A stretch of 64,000 nucleotides of DNA from the NCBI GenBank assembly GCA_964448075.1, contig CAYUUR010000004.1, forward strand, positions 4,419 to 68,418, given 5' to 3'. This stretch comes from an uncultured Candidatus Saccharibacteria bacterium (GTDB taxonomy: Bacteria; Patescibacteriota; Saccharimonadia; Saccharimonadales; CAYUUR01). Both the position numbers and the translations under genes were made by a program. Each line of letters starts with the position of its first letter. The stretch's first letter is position 1. The notes beneath the pieces are model-generated. The model worked only from the letters and a program-made list of their open reading frames with translations. It was not told the DNA's origin and did not search any database. Shown piece by piece: positions 13,333-63,986 of the stretch.

Positions 13333-13409
13333 GGGTCCATAGCTCAGCTGGTTAGAGCACCTGCCTTTTAAGCAGGGTGTCGTGGGTTCGAGTCCCACTG
13401 GACCCTCCA
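13333..13409 (+). tRNA. tRNA-Lys (anticodon TTT), CCA encoded
   Basis: Hand-folded cloverleaf: acceptor GGGTCCA/TGGACCC, D arm GCTC..GAGC, anticodon stem CCTGC/GCAGG with loop CTTTTAA (TTT at 13367-13369), T arm GTGGG-TTCGAGT-CCCAC, discriminator T, CCA. Confidence 0.95.
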
Positions 13410-13447
13410 ATAAAAACGCCTCATCGAAGATGGGGTATTTTTATTGG
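13407..13447 (+). terminator. hairpin whose outer stem starts with the tRNA CCA (CCAATAAAAA...TTTTTATTGG)
   Basis: Outer 10-bp A/T stem plus inner CCTCATC-GAA-GATGGGG stem containing a U-G pair (forms only in the plus-strand RNA). T-rich 3' arm. Confidence 0.6.
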
Positions 13448-13546
13448 TTGATCTCGTAGAGATTGAACGCACGAAGTGGGTGCGTTCATAAGGAGTGCGC
13501 GCAGGAATTTATTCCGAGCACATGACGCAATGGTTCGCAGAACATA
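13411..13546 (+). other. 136-nt module between direct repeats of the tRNA-Lys 3' end
   Basis: Bounded by exact 17-nt repeats (13394-13410 and 13547-13563). Contains hairpins at 13465-13487 and 13504-13515. Collinear blocks are shared with the 137-nt module at tRNA-His. Confidence 0.5.
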
Positions 13547-13563
13547 CCCACTGGACCCTCCAA
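13547..13563 (+). repeat. exact 17-nt copy of the tRNA-Lys 3' end (CCCACTGGACCCTCCAA)
   Basis: Identical to 13394-13410 (3' T-stem, acceptor 3' strand, discriminator, CCA, plus A). Confidence 0.9.
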
Positions 13564-13600
13564 ACAAAATGACTCACCATAGGTGGGTCTTTTTGTTTGG
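13560..13600 (+). terminator. second CCA-anchored hairpin (CCAAACAAAA...TTTTGTTTGG)
   Basis: Same design as 13407-13447. Inner stem GACTCACC-ATA-GGTGGGTC has one U-G pair, followed by a T-rich arm. Confidence 0.55.
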
Positions 13601-45598: not shown

Positions 45599-45675
45599 CG
45601 GGGTGTGGCGCAGTTGGCTAGCGCGCGCGGTTTGGGACCGCGAGGTCGAAGGTTCGAGTCCTTTCACCCCGACCA
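45599..45675 (+). tRNA. tRNA-Pro (anticodon TGG), CCA encoded
   Basis: Acceptor CGGGGTG/CACCCCG, D arm GCGC..GCGC, anticodon stem CGCGG/CCGCG with loop TTTGGGA (TGG at 45633-45635), T arm GAAGG-TTCGAGT-CCTTT, discriminator A, CCA. TATAAT at 45549-45554 upstream. Confidence 0.95.
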
Positions 45676-45712
45676 ATCAAAGAGTCCACAGCAATGTGGG
45701 CTTTTTGATTGG
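45673..45712 (+). terminator. CCA-anchored hairpin (CCAATCAAAG...CTTTTTGATTGG)
   Basis: The outer stem uses the tRNA CCA. Inner stem GTCCACA-GCAA-TGTGGGC has one U-G pair. T-rich 3' arm. Confidence 0.6.
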
Positions 45713-55866: not shown

Positions 55867-55941
55867 GCGGGTGTTGTATAGTGGCTAATATGCTAGCCTT
55901 CCAAGCTGGAGACGAGAGTTCGATTCTCTCCACCCGCACCA
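55867..55941 (+). tRNA. tRNA-Gly (anticodon TCC), CCA encoded
   Basis: Acceptor GCGGGTG/CACCCGC, anticodon stem CTAGC/GCTGG with loop CTTCCAA (TCC at 55900-55902), T arm GAGAG-TTCGATT-CTCTC, discriminator A, CCA. Confidence 0.93.
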
Positions 55942-55984
55942 ATCCTTTGTTCTCCTTGCGCGAGAGTAAAGGATTGGTTTTTTA
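55939..55984. terminator. CCA-anchored hairpin shared with the convergent gene (CCAATCCTTT...AAAGGATTGG + T tract)
   Basis: A 10-bp outer stem, an inner short stem, then TTTTTT. The stop of the minus-strand gene (55982-55984) lies in the T tract, so the hairpin may act in both directions. Confidence 0.55.
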
Positions 55985-57313
55985 GTCGGTAGTGACGCCA
56001 AAGATCGTGGTGTTGTTGTCGCCCTGGAGGATGGTCACTGATTTCTTGGTGGCAACGTCATAATTAGCCATGGTGAAATCATCGGCTTCACCAGTTCTCG
56101 AAATGACGTATTTGTCGCTAATGTAGTCAACATGTTCTATGAGATCTGCGGATTCGTAAAAAAGCAGCCCTTCGTTTTCTTTCACCAGGAAGAGTTGTTT
56201 GTCGGCGGTGTAGTATGGCGTATTGGTGCCAGCCGTGAAGCCAGTCAGCGTGGTCCTGCTTAGAAGTGTGCCGTTGGCATTTTTCTCGCCAGCATTGCCG
56301 ATCCGTGCAATTTCGGTCGGTTTGTCTGTGCCGCCTAACTTCATGAGGTTCACGACATACGGTGGCAACAAGCTTGCGCCTATACCATCGGGATTAGCTG
56401 GGTAAACACCAGTCATGTAAATCATCAGTGAAGTATCGCTTGAAACGGAAATACTCGCAAGTTCGTTAGCCTGGACGTCTTCTAGTAACGCAGTCCGTTT
56501 GGTGCTTTTGGTATCAAAGCTATAGGTGTTTTCTGGTCCGCCGTCACAGTTGTAGCAACCTGTTTGGTAGACCATGCGCTCTGCTTTACTCGACCAGCCT
56601 AGGATGAATGCTCCTGCAGTCTCTGCAGTGAAGAGTGTCTTAGCGTTCTGGCCTGACATATCAATGGTACGCACTTGGTTCTTATCCTTAGTACTTTTTA
56701 GGTAACCAAAGGCCAGTCCCGTATTATCGGCGTCGAGTTTGAGGCTGGTAATCTGTGAACCTGCTTCTCCTTCAAACACTTTCTTGTAGGTTTCTCCGTT
56801 GTCAGTACTGGTGTATATAACGTTATCGTCTACGAATGCTACATTTGGGCCAAAGGTGTCAGCGGCTGTCAGTGCGCTGTCGCGGGTAAGTTTTTGGATC
56901 TCTTTTCGTTCGCCTCCAGCGGCAGGTCGCGTAAATAGCGCAACGGGGTCGGAAGCGACAGCACGGTATGCATAGGCAACGCTGTTTGGCTCGTAAGTAA
57001 GTGTGGCCGGCTTTGTTTCGGCTGGCTGGACGGTTGCTGCGGGTGTCTCTTCTGGACGGTCCTGAGTGAGTAGGTAGCCTACAACTCCTGCGCCGGCCAG
57101 CAGCGCCACCAATATAATCACGGCAATGATAGGCTTCTTTTTTGATTTCTTGGGTGCTACTACAGGGTTTGGAGCAGCCTCTGGTGACGATTCCATTTCC
57201 ATGTGCTGACCAGCTGATTGAAACAGCTCGTCCTCTGTCTTTATTGGTGGGGTTGGTGCGGGCGGTGTGCTTGGTTGTTCGTTTGTGCTAGGAGTTTGCG
57301 GTTCTTGATCCAT
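55982..57313 (-). CDS. hypothetical N-terminally anchored extracytoplasmic protein
   Basis: 443 aa. Pro/Thr-rich N-terminus, KKSKKK, a TM helix (IIAVIILVALLAGAGVVGYLL), then ~360 aa of beta-rich sequence. Same layout as 13686..15005. Confidence 0.65.
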   Translation of the reverse strand: MDQEPQTPSTNEQPSTPPAPTPPIKTEDELFQSAGQHMEMESSPEAAPNPVVAPKKSKKKPIIAVIILVALLAGAGVVGYLLTQDRPEETPAATVQPAETKPATLTYEPNSVAYAYRAVASDPVALFTRPAAGGERKEIQKLTRDSALTAADTFGPNVAFVDDNVIYTSTDNGETYKKVFEGEAGSQITSLKLDADNTGLAFGYLKSTKDKNQVRTIDMSGQNAKTLFTAETAGAFILGWSSKAERMVYQTGCYNCDGGPENTYSFDTKSTKRTALLEDVQANELASISVSSDTSLMIYMTGVYPANPDGIGASLLPPYVVNLMKLGGTDKPTEIARIGNAGEKNANGTLLSRTTLTGFTAGTNTPYYTADKQLFLVKENEGLLFYESADLIEHVDYISDKYVISRTGEADDFTMANYDVATKKSVTILQGDNNTTIFGVTTD

Positions 57314-57363
57314 ACTAATTGGTTTCCGTTTATGCTTAGTAGTATAGGAATATAACCTCTGTT

Positions 57364-57393
57364 TTGCAAGAATAGCACCAGTGAAGGTATAAT
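57364..57393 (+). promoter_or_regulatory. candidate promoter TTGCAA-18-TATAAT for tRNA-Arg
   Basis: TTGCAA at 57364-57369, TATAAT at 57388-57393, 20 nt before the tRNA 5' end. Confidence 0.5.
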
Positions 57394-57413
57394 ATGCCAG
57401 TTAGTCAAGGTAC

Positions 57414-57490
57414 GCCCCGGTAGCTCAGCTGGATAGAGCAAGTGGGTTCTAACCATTAGGTCGGGGGTTCGAATCCCTCCCGGGGTACCA
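57414..57490 (+). tRNA. tRNA-Arg (anticodon TCT), CCA encoded
   Basis: Acceptor GCCCCGG/CCGGGGT (G1-U72), D arm GCTC..GAGC, anticodon stem AGTGG/CCATT with loop GTTCTAA (TCT at 57448-57450), T arm GGGGG-TTCGAAT-CCCTC, discriminator A, CCA. Confidence 0.93.
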
Positions 57491-57528
57491 AGCAAAACGT
57501 CCATGCCCTGCATGGGCTTTTTGTTTGG
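57488..57528 (+). terminator. CCA-anchored hairpin (CCAAGCAAAA...TTTTTGTTTGG)
   Basis: Inner stem GTCCATGC-CCT-GCATGGGC has one U-G pair. T-rich 3' arm. Confidence 0.6.
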
Positions 57529-57720
57529 TCCTACCATGATTCAAACACTCGACGCCAAGGGTCGGGGTGAAAACTGCCCGGTGGCAGTTTGCAAGAGAAT
57601 CTTCACCTGACAACTTGTTGTCATGGCAGAAGTTCTGGGCCTGCTGAAAGTAGGTCGAATCCCTGTCCGCCCTGTCTGGCAGACAGGCGGGCCTCCCTGG
57701 GTAGCATGTCGCTAATGCCT
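57529..57720 (+). ncRNA. candidate structured RNA containing a scrambled copy of the tRNA-Arg T-arm/acceptor 3' part
   Basis: No ORF on either strand is credible. Hairpins: AAACTGCC-CGGT-GGCAGTTT (57571-57590), TGACAA-CTTG-TTGTCA (57609-57624), and an 11-bp bulged stem (57665-57691). TAGGTCG+AATCCCT (57651-57664) and CCTCCCTGGGTAGCA (57692-57706) copy tRNA-Arg. Bounded by terminators on both sides. Confidence 0.3.
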
Positions 57721-57752
57721 AAAAAGACTTCAATAAGAAGTCTTTTTATTTT
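57721..57752 (+). terminator. rho-independent terminator
   Basis: AAAAAGACTTC-AATAA-GAAGTCTTTTT followed by ATTTT, 15 nt before the next ATG. Confidence 0.65.
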
Positions 57753-57766
57753 GCTATAGTTATGCC

Positions 57767-58690
57767 ATGAAGATTGATGCCGAAAAACAGTTTCAGCCAA
57801 CTCAGCAGTCTGTTGCATACATACTGGCCTCCTATGACTTGTCACTAATTAGCTTTGAGCCTGCACAAACTGGCATTGAAAACTGCACGTTGTTCGTGAC
57901 GACAAACAAAGGCGACTTTGTTCTCCGGGTGTATCGGCAGTCTAAAAAGACGAGTGACGAGATTGCACTTGAACTGGATTTTATCCGCTATCTTGATGAG
58001 AACGGTATACCAGTAGCAGCAGCAATTGCCAGTGTAAAAGGAGAGTATGTCATAGCTCACCAAGGTTGGCAGTCAATACTGATGCGCAAAGTAGCGGGTA
58101 AACACGCGCATTCATACGATGGTGAACTTGTTAGGAATCTTTCTGTTCTGCAGGCAAAGATGCACATGCTTTCACAAGAATATAAGAGCACTTTTCCTAT
58201 TTTACAGCCCTTAAGCATCCTAGAAGACACAATATTTATCCCAAAAGTCGATACATCCAAAATTAACAGTGAAGCACACCTACTCTTGAAGCGCGCACTA
58301 GATTATACAGTGTCACTTCCAGTCGGGTTGCCAACCGGTCTGTGTCACCTTGATTATGATGCAGACAATGTTCTGTTTGATGAGGCACAGCAGATAGCCG
58401 CCGTGCTTGATTTTGATGACCTCGCGCTTGCTCCGTTTGTTGTGTGTCTCAGCTACACGTTATGGGACGTTATGTCTCAAGAAGACACGCAGTTAGTCAA
58501 AGACTACATCACTTCATATGCTACAGTCCGAAACCTGACCAATCAGGAGCTAGAATTAATCCCAAAGATCATGCTTTTTAGACACTACATGATTGCCGGA
58601 CTTGTTATGCTTGATGGCGATATGGATGCTGAGACTACTGCAAAGTACATTCGTGTTGAACAGGTAATCATGAGCTGGCAATTAAGCTAA
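57767..58690 (+). CDS. phosphotransferase-family kinase (APH / homoserine kinase II / choline kinase-like)
   Basis: 307 aa with Brenner motif LCHLDYDADNVLF and LDFDDLA. Substrate unknown. Confidence 0.75.
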   Translation: MKIDAEKQFQPTQQSVAYILASYDLSLISFEPAQTGIENCTLFVTTNKGDFVLRVYRQSKKTSDEIALELDFIRYLDENGIPVAAAIASVKGEYVIAHQGWQSILMRKVAGKHAHSYDGELVRNLSVLQAKMHMLSQEYKSTFPILQPLSILEDTIFIPKVDTSKINSEAHLLLKRALDYTVSLPVGLPTGLCHLDYDADNVLFDEAQQIAAVLDFDDLALAPFVVCLSYTLWDVMSQEDTQLVKDYITSYATVRNLTNQELELIPKIMLFRHYMIAGLVMLDGDMDAETTAKYIRVEQVIMSWQLS

Positions 58691-59373: not shown

Positions 59374-62300
59374 ATGACGGATGCAGTTAAGGTTAATAAG
59401 AGACGGCTATGGCAGGTCCTATTCACCGTTTTCTCTATAGCTTTGCTTGCCGTGATACTCAGGCCAATTATGACCGAGGCTGCAGCATATACCTGGGATG
59501 GCGGTGGCGCCGACAATAACTGGAGTACCTGTGCTAACTGGACTACAGATTTTTGTCCTGGTGCCAGCGATACGGCAACCTTTAATGGCACATCAACGAA
59601 AGATGTTACTATCGATGGCGGATTTGGTGGAACAGTAACCTCGATAACTATTGCGTCTGGTTACACGGGGACTATAACAATGGCGCGCTCACTAACCGTA
59701 AGTACGTCATTCTCTCAGGCCACCGGCACATTTACGGCAGCAAACCAATCGTTCGATATGAATGGCACTTTCACACTTTCTGGTGGGATCTTCACAGCAT
59801 CGAGCGGTAGCACAACTCTGGCTGGAGCGATGACCGTTTCCGGCAGTCCTACTTTTAATGCAAATAGCGGTACCTGGACGTTTGATGGCACAACGACAGC
59901 AACCTTATCTTGCAATAACATAACGTTTAACCTGGTCACGTTCAATCACGATACAAACGCCGGTAAAACAGTTAGTTCGAACTGTACTTTGCCGCTTGGC
60001 AATAACCCTTCAACCGGAGCATCAACTACTCAGGATTTGACGATCAATGGGACGTTGACAGGGACTGGCACATTAACAATAGGTGCGAAAAACAGCGCCA
60101 ACCTTTTGACTCTCAACAGCGGCGGTTCTCTATCTGGGTTTACCGGGCTGGATGCGGGGTCGGTAACCATAGCGGGTACTTATGATTTCAGTACTTACAC
60201 TACGCTCTTTGCAGTAAGTTCGCCGTATAGTCAAACTTCCGGAACGGTTACACTGCCAAATGGTGCGGACTTCAATAATACGTTCACGGTTAGTAGTGGC
60301 GCTACGCTCAACGCCTCATCGGGCATCACGAACTTTGCAGGTAATTTCACTTTGGACGCGGGGTCGATATTTAATCACAATAATGGCACCCTTGACTTTG
60401 ACGGGGCGAATGCGGGGCTCTTGACGTGCAATGGAGCGAGTATCTATAACGCCACCTTTACGCATACGTCCAACTTCACCAAAACCATCGGCACCACTTG
60501 TACGGTTCCCCTAGGCAACAACCCTACCATAGGCAGTGACGGTACGGCCGATGTTACGGTGAACGGTACGTTGTCTGGTACTGGTACTCTTTCTCATGGG
60601 ACAAAAGCATCTGGTAATCTACTGACTCTTAGCTCCACTGGAGCTTTATCAGGCTTTAGTGGTCTTGGGCCTGGCTCGCTAACTGTCACTGGAGGAACTT
60701 ATGACTTTGGGGCTTACAGCGCTTTAGTGTTCCCCGGGGCTTACAGTCAAACAGCCGGCACGGTTACGATACCTAGCGGCTCTGATTTTAATAGTACATT
60801 CAGTGTGAGTAGCGGAGCTACATTTAACGCTCCGTCTGGTACGGCAACTTTTGCCAGTACGTTTACACTAGCAGCCGGCTCTATTTTTAACGCAAACTCT
60901 GGAACAATTACTTTTGATGGCGCGGTCACGGCTACTATTACCTGCAATAGCGCCGTCTTTAACCTAGTGACTTTTGCTCACAGCAGTAACTTTACCAAGA
61001 CTGTCAGTTCCGGTTGCACATTGCCTTTGGGCAATAATCCAACAGTAGGAAGTGGAAGTTTCCCAGATATTATTGTAGGAGGTACTCTGTCAGGAACTGG
61101 GACATTGACCATTGGCGGAAAGGCAGCACAGAATACACTTATCATAAATAGTGGTGGTTCACTATCAGGTTTTAGCGCACTAGATGCCGGAACTGTTAGT
61201 TTGGCAGCAGGAACCCATAACTTCGGCAGTCTTACTACTTTCGCGACTAGGGCTGATTTCTCGCTCGTGAGCGGAGTTATTTTTACGGCACCAAGTGGAA
61301 CCTTGTCATTGTATGAAGACTTTACTGTAAATGCTGGCGCAACATTCAACGCGAACGGAGGCACAGTTGTTTTCACGGATCCCGGCTATAACTCAGCAAT
61401 AATTAACTGTAACAACGTCACTTTTAATTTGGTGGTATTTGACAACTCACAACCGAGAACTTTCAACAATTGCGCTATGCAAATAGCAGACTCGACAGTT
61501 GACGTAAGTTCTACGCAGATTGTCTTAGGTACGAACTCTTCTATTACTGGGGGTGGCAATACGTATCTTCACGGTATGAGATTAACCATAAACCAAGGCT
61601 CTTCAATTTCGGGCTTTTCTGAGTTACTGATTGCTGAAATAGAACTTAAAGATAATGCTAGTTTGGATATTTCCGCTATGGACTATGTATACATAACAAA
61701 TAACTTAACCATGAGGACTGGTAGTAGTCTAACTCAAGGGACCGCTGAGTTAGAGATCGGTAGCATCGGGATGTCAGACGGTGGCGCATCGCTCATTGGC
61801 GGCAGTGGCCCGATGCTATTTCACAACGATGTAGACATTGTAGGCTCCGCAGATGTATTAACGCTTACGTCTGGCATGGCAAAATTTGAAGGTAATTTGG
61901 AGCTTGGAGGTGCCACTTCGATCGATGCTAACGGTGGTGTGGTTGAGTTTACGGATGACGGCTTTGGTGGTGCGTACACGGTTGCTTGTAACGGCGCAGT
62001 ATTTAATGAAGTGACATTCACAAGGGATATTGGGACGCTGACCATTGCAGACACATGCGAATTTCTACTCGGTAATAATCCGTCTATTACGGTTGGGCCT
62101 GATTTTCGATTATATGGCCAGCTAACTGGCACTGGCACACTGACGGTTATCGGATCGCTTAGCCCAAGAGGTAGCAGTGTCGATCTCTCTGGGTTTACTG
62201 GTCTACAGACTGATGATTTGTTCATAGGGGTTGCTGGAACGGCTACCAGCCTGAACTTAGGAGCGTTTAACACGGTTGATGTAGATGGTGATTTTTCGGT

Positions 62301-63057
62301 GGCAGCTGATGGTGTGTTCACGGCGACATCAGCAAACATGACCGTTGCCGGAGATTTTAGCGTCGATGACGCCGGCACATTCAATCATAATAACGGAACT
62401 GTTATTCTTGATGGTAGTGATCAGACAATCAACGGCACTACTTTTTATAACCTGAACAAGACTGTCGCAACCGCCGCAACACTCACAATGTCAGCCGGTA
62501 GGACTGTGACAATCCAAGGAACGCTCACGCTTAAAGATGCTTCTGGCCAATTACTCAGTATCGTTTCTTCTGATCCCGGGGTTACTCAGTGGGGGATAAA
62601 TGCAAGTGGTGACACGGAGATTAGGTATGTATCTGTAACTGACAGCAATAATGTCGGATCAGCGATTACGGCATTAGACAGTGAAAATGGCGGCAACAAC
62701 ATCAATTGGTTGTTCGTAGATACGTCTATTGATAGCGATCCCGAAGAAGAGGCTACGCAAACTGATGATAGTACCATCAAAGCAATTACCGATGATGAGG
62801 TAGTCACATATTATGAAGAGAGTACAGATAGTACCAATGACGACGATAAGAGTGATAATGAGACAGACGACTATCGTGACGATGGTTTGTCTGATTTCGG
62901 CGCAGCAACGACTGATCAGATCAAGTCACCAGTTACTACAAGTGAAAACAAACTGCCCGCAATAGTTGTGCGCATCGCGCTTGGCGGACTAGTAGCGCTC
63001 ATCGTTTTTGTTCTAGTGAGGTTGTTTGTTCGTCCAGGTGCCCCGCCATTGGAATAG
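59374..63057 (+). CDS. giant repetitive surface protein with C-terminal membrane anchor
   Basis: 1227 aa. N-terminal signal/anchor (WQVLFTVFSIALLAVIL), YTWDGGGADNNWST start, six modules of ~150-190 aa (each FN[AH]N.GT..F[DT]..., C.N..F..V.F, NCTLPLGNNP, G.L.GTGTL), an Asp/Glu/Thr-rich linker, and a terminal TM helix. No LAxTG. Confidence 0.85.
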   Translation: MTDAVKVNKRRLWQVLFTVFSIALLAVILRPIMTEAAAYTWDGGGADNNWSTCANWTTDFCPGASDTATFNGTSTKDVTIDGGFGGTVTSITIASGYTGTITMARSLTVSTSFSQATGTFTAANQSFDMNGTFTLSGGIFTASSGSTTLAGAMTVSGSPTFNANSGTWTFDGTTTATLSCNNITFNLVTFNHDTNAGKTVSSNCTLPLGNNPSTGASTTQDLTINGTLTGTGTLTIGAKNSANLLTLNSGGSLSGFTGLDAGSVTIAGTYDFSTYTTLFAVSSPYSQTSGTVTLPNGADFNNTFTVSSGATLNASSGITNFAGNFTLDAGSIFNHNNGTLDFDGANAGLLTCNGASIYNATFTHTSNFTKTIGTTCTVPLGNNPTIGSDGTADVTVNGTLSGTGTLSHGTKASGNLLTLSSTGALSGFSGLGPGSLTVTGGTYDFGAYSALVFPGAYSQTAGTVTIPSGSDFNSTFSVSSGATFNAPSGTATFASTFTLAAGSIFNANSGTITFDGAVTATITCNSAVFNLVTFAHSSNFTKTVSSGCTLPLGNNPTVGSGSFPDIIVGGTLSGTGTLTIGGKAAQNTLIINSGGSLSGFSALDAGTVSLAAGTHNFGSLTTFATRADFSLVSGVIFTAPSGTLSLYEDFTVNAGATFNANGGTVVFTDPGYNSAIINCNNVTFNLVVFDNSQPRTFNNCAMQIADSTVDVSSTQIVLGTNSSITGGGNTYLHGMRLTINQGSSISGFSELLIAEIELKDNASLDISAMDYVYITNNLTMRTGSSLTQGTAELEIGSIGMSDGGASLIGGSGPMLFHNDVDIVGSADVLTLTSGMAKFEGNLELGGATSIDANGGVVEFTDDGFGGAYTVACNGAVFNEVTFTRDIGTLTIADTCEFLLGNNPSITVGPDFRLYGQLTGTGTLTVIGSLSPRGSSVDLSGFTGLQTDDLFIGVAGTATSLNLGAFNTVDVDGDFSVAADGVFTATSANMTVAGDFSVDDAGTFNHNNGTVILDGSDQTINGTTFYNLNKTVATAATLTMSAGRTVTIQGTLTLKDASGQLLSIVSSDPGVTQWGINASGDTEIRYVSVTDSNNVGSAITALDSENGGNNINWLFVDTSIDSDPEEEATQTDDSTIKAITDDEVVTYYEESTDSTNDDDKSDNETDDYRDDGLSDFGAATTDQIKSPVTTSENKLPAIVVRIALGGLVALIVFVLVRLFVRPGAPPLE

Positions 63058-63713: not shown

Positions 63714-63791
63714 GGCGGGCTTAGCTCAGTTGGTTAGAGCGTCGGGTTGTGGTTCCGAAGGTCGTGGGTTCGATCCCCATAGCTCGCCCCA
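63714..63791 (+). tRNA. tRNA-His (anticodon GTG) with encoded G-1 and CCA
   Basis: G-1 at 63714 opposite discriminator C. Acceptor GCGGGCT/AGCTCGC, anticodon stem TCGGG/TCCGA with loop TTGTGGT (GTG at 63749-63751), T arm GTGGG-TTCGATC-CCCAT, CCA. Confidence 0.93.
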
Positions 63792-63829
63792 TGAAAAGAC
63801 CAGTCCTTCCGGGCTGGTTTTTTCATGGG
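63788..63829 (+). terminator. CCA-anchored hairpin (CCCATGAAAA...TTTTCATGGG)
   Basis: A 10-bp outer stem, plus inner ACCAGTCC-TTCC-GGGCTGGT with one U-G pair, followed by a T tract. Confidence 0.6.
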
Positions 63830-63928
63830 CATGTTTATGTGAGCGAACCTGAGAACGCGAAGCGTGGGTTCGACAAACAAAGGCACGCGCAGAAGCTCGC
63901 TTCGAGCATGTCTGCAGTTTGTATCCAT
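63792..63928 (+). other. 137-nt module between direct repeats of the tRNA-His 3' end
   Basis: Bounded by exact 19-nt repeats (63773-63791 and 63929-63947). Contains a further 11-nt T-arm copy CGTGGGTTCGA (63863-63873) and a GAAG-CTCG-CTTC hairpin (63892-63903). Collinear with the tRNA-Lys module. Confidence 0.5.
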
Positions 63929-63947
63929 ATCCCCATAGCTCGCCCCA
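63929..63947 (+). repeat. exact 19-nt copy of the tRNA-His 3' end (ATCCCCATAGCTCGCCCCA)
   Basis: Identical to 63773-63791 (from T-loop A58 through CCA). Confidence 0.9.
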
Positions 63948-63986
63948 AATAAAAATGATCCCAGTTGGGGTCATTTTTATTTGGGG
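63943..63986 (+). terminator. second CCA-anchored hairpin (CCCCAAATAAAAA...TTTTTATTTGGGG)
   Basis: Same design as 63788-63829. Inner stem TGATCCCA-GT-TGGGGTCA has one U-G pair. Confidence 0.55.

Follow-up and report, generated by a model that had tools for sequence, protein, structure and literature searches.

A structured insert downstream of the tRNA-Arg gene

The DNA analyzed here, referred to as the window, is a 64,000-nt stretch from an uncultured Candidatus Saccharibacteria bacterium, and the element under study lies directly downstream of its tRNA-Arg(TCT) gene, at positions 57491-57752. The tRNA gene is intact and is followed by a terminator, by short antisense and sense copies of parts of the tRNA, by a structured segment, referred to below as the type D module, and by a degenerate copy of the tRNA 3' end that is split by a hairpin. 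A second terminator precedes the promoter and the start of an APH gene (ATG at 57767). Coordinates are listed in Table 1; loci used for comparison are given by L numbers. The initial annotation, made from the sequence alone, had described the segment as free of open reading frames (ORFs), bounded by two terminators and rich in hairpins, and had proposed that it is either an unannotated small RNA or an older integration scar.

Sequence inspection and a terminator scan bear out most of the structural part of this description. Both terminators were found, each with a T run, and the 8-bp hairpin with a CGGT loop (hp1), the 6-bp hairpin with a CTTG loop (hp2) and a bulged hairpin (hp3) are all present. 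The stem of terminator 1 is extended by pairing of the tRNA CCA and the A-rich run next to it with the TTTGTTTGG run. Strictly speaking, the region is not free of ORFs, since mechanical ORFs overlap it (e.g., a 56-aa ORF with a TTG start at 57589-57759, plus strand), but none of them has any support. The fold of the 262-nt stretch has a z-score of -5.47 versus shuffled sequences, a figure that includes both terminators. Promoter-like sites, which are σ70-like, were called in a scan of positions 56800-58200 only at 57341-57393, upstream of tRNA-Arg; none was called between terminator 1 and the type D module.

Table 1. Features of the tRNA-Arg locus and of related loci in the window.
Feature	Position	Strand	Evidence or remarks
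tRNA-Arg(TCT), intact; last ~22 nt (T-loop to CCA) are the left repeat copy	57414-57490	+	ARAGORN; Rfam tRNA model, 62.5 bits
Terminator 1	57491-57528	+	Core hairpin 57499-57517, then T run; terminator scan, sequence
Antisense copy of tRNA-Arg T-arm	57538-57553	+	GATTCAAACACTCGAC versus GATTCGAACCCCCGAC, 13/16
Sense copy of variable loop and T-stem 5' strand, AGGGTCGGGGT	57558-57568	+	Minimum free energy (MFE) fold
Type D module, 84 nt, three helices, conserved tail GGGCCTGCTGAAAGTA	57569-57652	+	nhmmer relatives L104, L012, L071, L025; alignment; compensatory changes
hp1, AAACTGCC-CGGT-GGCAGTTT	57571-57590	+	Sequence
Helix P4, GAATCTTC/GAAGTTC	57597-57604 with 57629-57635	+	Compensatory changes in relatives
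hp2, TGACAA-CTTG-TTGTCA	57608-57623	+	Sequence
Right (displaced) tRNA copy, first part, GGTCGAATCCCT (tRNA 52-64 minus one T)	57653-57664	+	Sequence, alignment
hp3, bulged palindromic insertion of 25-28 nt, splits displaced copy, flanked by CCT duplication	57665-57692	+	
Displaced tRNA copy, second part, CTCCCTGGGTAGCA (acceptor 3' strand, CCA mutated to GCA)	57693-57706	+	
Ancestral tRNA trailer (TGTCGCTAATGCC) and terminator 2	57707-57752	+	Orthology to L012 9947-10003; terminator scan (hairpin site 57720-57748, then T run)
Lys cassette	13410-13600	+	Model R1 match 13471-13554, E 1e-7
His cassette, same layout	63792-63986	+	Model R1 match 63859-63933, E 3.5e-6
ORF of 443 aa between tRNA-Gly and tRNA-Arg, no Pfam match	55982-57313	-	
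ORF of 1227 aa after NADAR, no Pfam match	59374-63057	+	

The copy of the tRNA 3' end is genuine. The sequence CCTCCCTGGGTAGCA (57692-57706) matches the 3' end of tRNA-Arg at 13 of 15 positions and is the only such match in 64 kb beyond the tRNA itself, where 0.02 would be expected. A direct repeat of the tRNA 3' segment (TCGAATCCCT...CCTCCCTGGGTAGCA versus the tRNA) flanks the insert, which is ca. 216 nt long. The antisense copy of the T-arm was absent from the initial annotation. Outside tRNA genes no other match of this kind is found in the window (expectation, 0.26 per 64 kb), and the copy recurs at the same place in other family members. It pairs with the sense copy to form hairpin P1 (CUCGAC with GUCGGG in the MFE fold). 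Neither within the insert nor adjoining it, where the flanking genes are APH and the 443-aa ORF, was an integrase gene or remnant found.

No known RNA family explains the stretch. In Rfam 15, only tRNA passes (the window was scanned at the gathering score, the region at E <= 10); the best non-tRNA matches in the region reach 14-23 bits versus gathering scores of 50-100, and the canonical cassette relatives described below gave no family beyond tRNA either. The signal recognition particle (SRP), 6S, tmRNA and ribozyme families were rejected, since scans of the window, the region and the relatives yielded tRNAs only.

The degenerate copy is the displaced end of the ancestral tRNA

An element-free tRNA-Lys(ctt) gene in L012 is followed by ATCCCGCTAATGTTTAAACTCC..., a terminator and GCTATAGTTAGCGC, which leads to the ATG of APH. 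In the window, the degenerate copy is followed by TGTCGCTAATGCC, terminator 2 and GCTATAGTTATGCC, which again leads to the ATG of APH. The 13-nt trailer, terminator 2 and the APH promoter of the window are orthologous to this empty site (L012 9947-10003). We therefore conclude that the degenerate copy is the displaced original end of the tRNA. Judged from this comparison, everything from the T-loop of the present tRNA-Arg to position 57692 is added material. A tRNA, terminator and APH arrangement without any insert is found in L005.

The displaced copy is decaying: it contains two substitutions, its CCA has become GCA, and the palindrome hp3 is inserted into it. A homologue of hp3 interrupts a tRNA-Lys-like copy of L011 at the corresponding position (255-283), and related palindromes are present in L099, L054 and L144; hp3 is therefore a second, even smaller recurrent insertion. 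The first 19 positions of L011, a public Saccharibacteria contig (JAHBAU020000025.1), read AGATGTGTATAAGAGACAG, which we take to be the Nextera transposase adapter, and an untrimmed adapter is therefore present in the deposited assembly.

The type D module is a conserved structured family

A local blastn search identified a relative of the Arg module in L012 (35 nt, 88.6% identity, E 6.6e-4). An nhmmer profile built from these two sequences, the window and L012, found three more members. The module follows tRNA-Arg(TCT) in the window, where the tRNA repeat (13/15) is split by hp3, and tRNA-Glu in L012, with a repeat of 13 nt. It is located behind tRNA-Lys(ctt) in both L104 (E 2.5e-11; exact 20-nt repeat and a second terminator) and L025 (E 1.6e-4; repeat truncated near position 71), while in L071 (E 2e-12) it adjoins tRNA-Arg(cct) in a mirror arrangement. 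The tRNA with its terminator, the antisense/sense hairpin, module D and the tRNA copy follow one another in the same order in the window, L104, L012 and L025. The elements common to the members are, in order, GGTGA, hp1, GCAAGRGAATCTTC, hp2, GAAGTTC and YGGGCCTGCTGRARGTAGGTCGA; GGGCCTGCTGRARGTAGG serves as the type D motif.

The structure of the module is conserved. By eye, each of the five members has hp1 as a perfect stem of 8 bp, with differing sequence (AAACTGCC, AAACAGCC, GACATGCC, GAACAGCC and GAACCGCC), and pairing is retained at 91% in P4 and at 93% in hp2. Twelve pairs with double changes were counted, compared with 5.5 +/- 1.8 in shuffles; with n=5 the statistics are thin, and the signal is consistent. 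The covariation check in relatives proposed with the initial annotation thus came out in favor of structure, the helices of module D showing compensatory changes among the five members.

Several earlier suggestions have to be modified in this light. The long-range complementarity of GGTGAA and TTCACC exists, but it competes with P4, and the compensatory changes in relatives keep P4. The sequence TAGGTCG had been read as a plain copy of the tRNA-Arg variable loop. This is incorrect: GTAGGTCGA, the conserved 3' end of the module, also adjoins a tRNA-Glu whose variable region is CAACA (L012), and TAGGTCG is therefore module sequence. Of the proposed degenerate tRNA copy, the T-arm and acceptor part stands, starting at approximately GGTCGAATCCCT, but the TAGGTCG part does not. 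As for an integration scar, the displaced original tRNA end agrees with that suggestion, but the intervening DNA belongs to a conserved structured module family and is not a random remnant.

The contig of L012 (DATLCF010000001.1) is labelled Nevskiaceae and that of L025 (DATHJH010000018.1) Candidatus Limnocylindria. Both carry a Saccharibacteria-type APH locus, CCA-pairing terminators and type D cassettes. The two contigs are probably mislabelled or misbinned.

Sister cassettes behind tRNA-Lys and tRNA-His

Three of the five tRNA genes in the window, those for Lys, Arg and His, have a copy of their 3' end downstream, as initially noted; tRNA-Pro and tRNA-Gly have none in the window. Common to the three is a tRNA with a CCA-pairing terminator, then two partial T-arm copies, the first antisense and the second sense (5' half only), then a structured module, the tRNA repeat (T-loop to CCA) and a second terminator. 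The Arg segment is not an isolated small RNA, being one of three like layouts in the window.

The Lys cassette consists of terminator 1, an antisense/sense hairpin (13462-13488), a type A module with a characteristic 19-mer (13500-13518), an exact 16-nt repeat of the tRNA 3' end (13547-13562) and terminator 2. In the His cassette, the module is a type A variant, with CGCAGAAGCTCGCTTCGAG at 63888-63906; it also has a terminator 2, and its repeat, which ends at 63947, is exact over 17 nt (63931-63947) and can be extended to 19 nt. The Lys and His modules share homology, and neither is homologous to the Arg module. The antisense/sense hairpin of the Lys cassette has diverged from the tRNA sequence and retains pairing (GAACGCAC with GTGCGTTC). 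It is the hairpin that is maintained, not identity to the tRNA. A contig of a near-identical strain, L007, ends short of tRNA-Lys.

All five tRNA genes of the window encode CCA, and each is followed by a CCA-pairing terminator (13407-13447, 45673-45712, 55939-55978, 57488-57528 and 63788-63829). In each of the five stems the CCA, together with a run rich in A, is paired to a T-rich run whose last bases are TGG (e.g., CCAATAAAAA...TTTTTATTGG); in the precursor, the terminator helix therefore sequesters the mature tRNA 3' end. The displaced copies behind tRNA-Lys and tRNA-His are followed by the same kind of terminator.

The type A family is widespread and its helices covary

The type A 19-mer, CGCAGGAATTYATTCCGAG, was taken from the Lys module and is also found behind tRNA-Lys in L013, a distant Saccharibacteria assembly. 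Among the matches listed, which come from metagenome contigs, there are more than 120 exact copies; this number is a lower bound, and exactness across all of them follows from the search design. At ca. 75 of the ca. 120 listed places, a tRNA gene is located 60-126 nt upstream on the same strand, and these tRNAs include Met, Lys, Ser, Arg, Ala, Gln, Glu, Asp, Trp, Val, Phe, Asn, Leu, Thr, Pro and His. The copy of the cognate tRNA tail that follows the module is most commonly 18 nt long (tRNA positions 59-76). This 18-mer is exact in 20 of 66 distinct elements and has two mismatches or fewer in 33, while non-cognate tRNAs, used as a control, reach four mismatches at best. The rest of the tail copies either stop short on the 3' side or are interrupted by additional small insertions.

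A covariance model, R1, was built from 20 type A members with a structure set by hand. It found 99 copies in 83 loci, up to three of them on one 2.2-kb contig; in 57491-57752 it had no match at E <= 1, and the Arg region is not type A. In the R1 alignment, 92.6% of cells are paired (20-50% in slid controls), and 256 cells show double changes versus 66 +/- 8 in shuffles; these counts lean towards structure because the alignment was fitted to the model, but the margin is large. RNAalifold applied to a MAFFT alignment of type A (A6) recovered only 8 pairs, since bulges shift the register of that alignment.

The solid helices of type A contain 27 G.T pairs versus 7 A.C pairs, as counted on the model alignment (an ungapped count is confounded by a conserved C.A position). 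Given this excess, the folded strand is the tRNA-sense strand, as RNA or as top-strand single-stranded DNA (ssDNA). Most members have a triloop at the end of helix P3b (GAA in 26, AAA in 13, GCA in 5 and GTA in 3), closed by C-G. Triloops of the d(C-GNA-G) type are unusually stable in DNA, not in RNA. The P3b loops lean towards ssDNA, which is only suggestive.

Mobile-element collections gave no counterpart: there was no match to the 19-mer in 2.9 million IMG/VR contigs, to the type A cassette in GenBank phages or to the Arg spacer in PLSDB plasmids, Saccharibacteria elements being poorly sampled in these collections. The tRNA-His repeat had three matches in viral contigs; these were rejected as chance matches inside unrelated sequence that reads like coding DNA.

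The 19-mer hairpin is also found in another conserved, non-tRNA context (L042, ca. 999-1150; L064, ca. 1689-1840; L066, minus strand, ca. 1092-1110), where it is followed by GCTGCATAGCGAG..GATTTTTTTAACGAT..AAGGGACAGGACGAACCAGAAGACAGCCCC. L041 and L062 have it together with a hairpin rich in A and T, located upstream of an ORF. Reuse of the 19-mer hairpin as a binding module is possible.

Turnover, arrays and cargo at the same tRNA genes

Unrelated modules occupy the same tRNA-Arg(TCT) locus in relatives: type D in the window, type B with an extra ORF in L002, and type A with 480 nt of cargo in the syntenic L115. Tandem arrays are also observed. In L075 a type A unit comes after a type B unit, with exact repeats in both, and in L099 it comes after a type C unit. 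In L086 (6100-11600), a 5.4-kb block separates tRNA-Asn from an older cassette. Its genes specify DUF1905, ArsR- and XRE-type regulators, a cation-efflux-like protein, thioredoxins, DsbD, MsrB, MsrA and glutaredoxin, and no recombinase was recognized among them; the block is an oxidative-stress island. None of the inserts inspected (L086, L115 and L002) contains an integrase, none of the cassettes inspected encodes a protein, and clustering of ORFs from ca. 110 loci revealed no protein family that consistently adjoins cassettes and no shared recombinase.

Two cases are informative about junctions. Up to the final base of the repeat, L121 and L147 share 97.8% identity, and past that point they are unrelated, so the end of the repeat is a junction. 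In L071, module D is located in the T-loop of a near-complete tRNA-Arg copy (positions 1-53), beside the intact tRNA; next come the fold-back junction AATC|GATT, a second copy of 18 nt of host flank and the intact tRNA.

Mirror-image variants at tRNA 5' ends were observed in L002 (3440-3560), L027 (10405-10515, minus strand), L025 (8068-8193), L104 (1544-1590, minus strand) and L071 (1440-1568). Here, a promoter is followed by 8-20 nt copied from the 5' end of the tRNA, in some cases together with host flank, then by a short insert, often with an antisense D-arm copy, and finally by the intact tRNA. The variant in L002 affects a tRNA-His gene orthologous to that of the window.

Several observations concern neighboring genes. 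The source contig is poorly sampled, and the nearest homologue of the APH protein, an APH-family kinase, is 76% identical (L002); a scan of species genomes with an APH alignment returned only distant relatives, in Saccharibacteria and Patescibacteria assemblies, and the same scan with the APH protein alone returned no match. The extra ORF of L002 (251-586, 111 aa) lies between the tRNA-Arg repeat and APH; its Cys/His motifs are HNH-like by eye (CYDCHH...DFDH...CSNCH), with no Pfam match at E <= 0.01. In the syntenic L115, tRNA-Gly and tRNA-Arg are only ca. 130 nt apart, and the 443-aa gene of the window is therefore an insertion between two tRNA genes.

Logan assemblies made from related samples break in the tRNA/cassette repeats: L001 starts in the T-arm of tRNA-Arg, and L003 and L004 start at AGGTTCG of the sense copy. 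Cassette elements fragment short-read assemblies.

Discussion

We interpret positions 57491-57706 as a decayed, non-autonomous miniature cassette that encodes no protein and was inserted at the T-loop/3' end of tRNA-Arg; we see the chances for and against this interpretation as roughly balanced. It draws on an architecture common to the cassettes, which in relatives follow tRNAs of all isotypes and have differing modules placed in one T-loop slot. A cassette would enter at the T-loop by duplicative or site-specific recombination and would leave on the left a complete tRNA with a fresh CCA-pairing terminator, while the old tRNA end would be pushed outward, in the case of Arg to ca. 216 nt downstream. 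The conserved helices may be recognized as a folded tRNA-sense single strand. If integron attC sites or IS200/IS605 ends are taken as a guide, this strand is probably ssDNA, and the recognizing enzyme would act in trans, being encoded elsewhere in the genome. The Arg copy in the window is probably inactive.

A number of findings weigh against an inserted miniature cassette. No recombinase or transposase was identified, and mobility is for this reason inferred from distribution and was never observed. An all-against-all blastn comparison of the data set yielded no filled/empty pair with shared identical flanks. Antisense and sense segments specific for the tRNA are interleaved with conserved cassette segments; simple cut-and-paste is therefore insufficient, and a target-derived duplication, reprogramming or gene conversion would be required. 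The outer, older repeat, which lies beside the module, is exact in L086 and L115, and the younger middle copy is decayed; this hints at selection or gene conversion acting on the module-adjacent repeat, and hence at a possible function. The duplicated segment in L071 is the tRNA 5' part plus 18 nt of host flank, not the 3' tail, so that no single fixed target duplication fits all cases. Finally, strong structural conservation is equally expected of a functional RNA.

The last point leads to the alternative that the cassettes are structured RNAs linked to the tRNA, produced by read-through of terminator 1, with arms that mimic an acceptor/T-arm minihelix ending in NCCA, with maturation by tRNA-processing enzymes and with modules A, B, C and D as functional payloads. 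The compensatory changes in the helices, the wobble asymmetry that fits the tRNA-sense strand, the orientation, which is always co-linear with the tRNA, and the better conservation of the module-adjacent copy compared with other tRNA-derived segments all agree with such a role; so do younger members whose antisense copy spans the acceptor strand, where a 12-bp stem with a free NCCA tail is possible (L061 and L043). Yet a strong terminator lies ahead of every cassette, no promoter-like site was called between terminator 1 and the module of the window (other loci were judged by eye), half of the repeats are truncated or split, close relatives carry unrelated module types at the same tRNA locus, and no Rfam family matches. 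The Arg copy of the window, moreover, ends in GCA, and its antisense segment covers the T-arm only, with no acceptor-strand complement; the Lys copy of the window also lacks an acceptor-stem mimic. We consider an RNA function, including the processing and payload roles, unlikely. A system of its own kind, integron-like or guide-like, that uses tRNA genes of Saccharibacteria as docking sites has a similarly small but real chance. Several families of small structured cassettes without proteins would then use the universal T-loop as their point of entry, either in the form of folded single strands or by way of an RNA intermediate. Each insertion would regenerate the tRNA end, arrays would grow outward and a trans-acting enzyme would recognize motifs such as the 19-mer hairpin.

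A conventional integration scar, left when a prophage or island with an integrase entered the T-loop of tRNA-Arg and later lost its interior so that ca. 200 nt of arms remained, seems to us quite improbable. The direct repeat from T-loop to CCA is the classic signature of tRNA-targeting integrases, the displaced ancestral tRNA end fits, and cargo islands are found at the same sites. However, random deletions would not yield the same size and layout at ca. 100 independent loci of all isotypes; the inserts inspected have no integrase and the cassettes no shared neighbor protein family, the phage, plasmid and IMG/VR searches were negative, and internal helices with compensatory changes are unexpected for arm sites that act as double-stranded DNA. 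Very improbable is a by-product of repair or replication that is not mobile, in which the palindromic T-arm and terminator would be sites of fold-back priming and template switching, giving rise to inverted and direct partial duplications that persist. The sense-antisense-sense arrangement that starts directly after the TGG of the terminator, the perfect AATC|GATT fold-back junction in L071 and the variable size of the duplicated segment are in keeping with such events, which nevertheless cannot explain conserved modules unrelated to tRNA, the abundance of exact 19-mer copies or covarying helices at hundreds of loci and many isotypes. Further candidates were discarded: a bridge or seek RNA of the IS110/IS1111 kind is a misfit, since the guide-like segments pair with each other; a TnpB omega-RNA with a guide matching the tRNA was set aside because a nuclease gene is lacking and, of the would-be guides, half are truncated; and reverse transcription primed by tRNA and stopping at m1A58 fits the 18-nt length, but not the strand logic or the antisense copy. 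Casposon-type target duplication and archaeal-type T-loop introns were considered and set aside.

Genes for tRNA are classic landing sites of large integrative elements; here they are occupied by miniature structured cassettes without a gene of their own. These are located at every isotype, belong to several unrelated module families and are conserved among Saccharibacteria from many environments. Should the cassettes be mobile, ultra-small episymbiont genomes would have a recombination route, and an enzyme for it, not described before; if they are RNAs, a large non-coding RNA family would be missing from Rfam. The cassettes also create partial tRNA copies and assembly breaks, and mark hot spots of cargo DNA entry.

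Relation to known systems

Like the tRNA-like domain of tmRNA and the t-elements of plant mitochondria, younger cassettes could form an acceptor/T stem with an NCCA tail. The mimic is lost in many cassettes, including all three in the window. MITEs and PATEs derived from IS200/IS605, REPs and Rickettsia palindromic elements resemble the cassettes in being short, structured and found in small genomes. Further shared traits are several copies per genome (for the cassettes, up to three R1 matches on a 2.2-kb contig) and presumed mobilization in trans. IS200/IS605 elements, however, make no target duplication and are not specific for tRNA, whereas a cassette has hairpins but is flanked by a tRNA repeat of 16-22 nt; REPs are 20-40 nt long, whereas in cassettes tRNA-derived segments are interleaved with conserved ones.

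Integron cassettes, with their folded attC sites (and the CTX phage, with its folded attP), offer another parallel. They too are small units lacking a recombinase; insertion takes place beside one fixed site, and arrays form as older units are moved outward. They too conserve an imperfect hairpin structure rather than sequence and fold in a strand-specific manner. The target of the tRNA cassettes, in contrast, is the T-loop and not attI or dif, they carry no ORFs, and their 18-nt repeat is much longer than the integron core site. No integron R/L box consensus was evident in the cassettes by eye, and no search for IntI was made.

The attL and attR sites of integrase-encoding elements share with the cassettes the direct repeat from T-loop to CCA, the restoration of a functional tRNA on the left with displacement of the old end to the right, and the accretion of successive insertions at one tRNA. 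Williams, in 2002, reportedly distinguished a T-loop sublocation class among tRNA-gene integration sites. Fragments of tRNA genes that serve as attR sites have been reviewed (PMC9897764). A cassette differs from such elements in that its insert is only 110-230 nt long and encodes neither an integrase nor any other protein, in its constant layout at ca. 100 loci of all isotypes, in its antisense tRNA copy and covarying helices, and in having no phage or plasmid counterpart in GenBank phages, PLSDB or IMG/VR. In literature searches, no description of these tRNA-end cassettes was found. We regard them as a variant of tRNA-targeted insertion.

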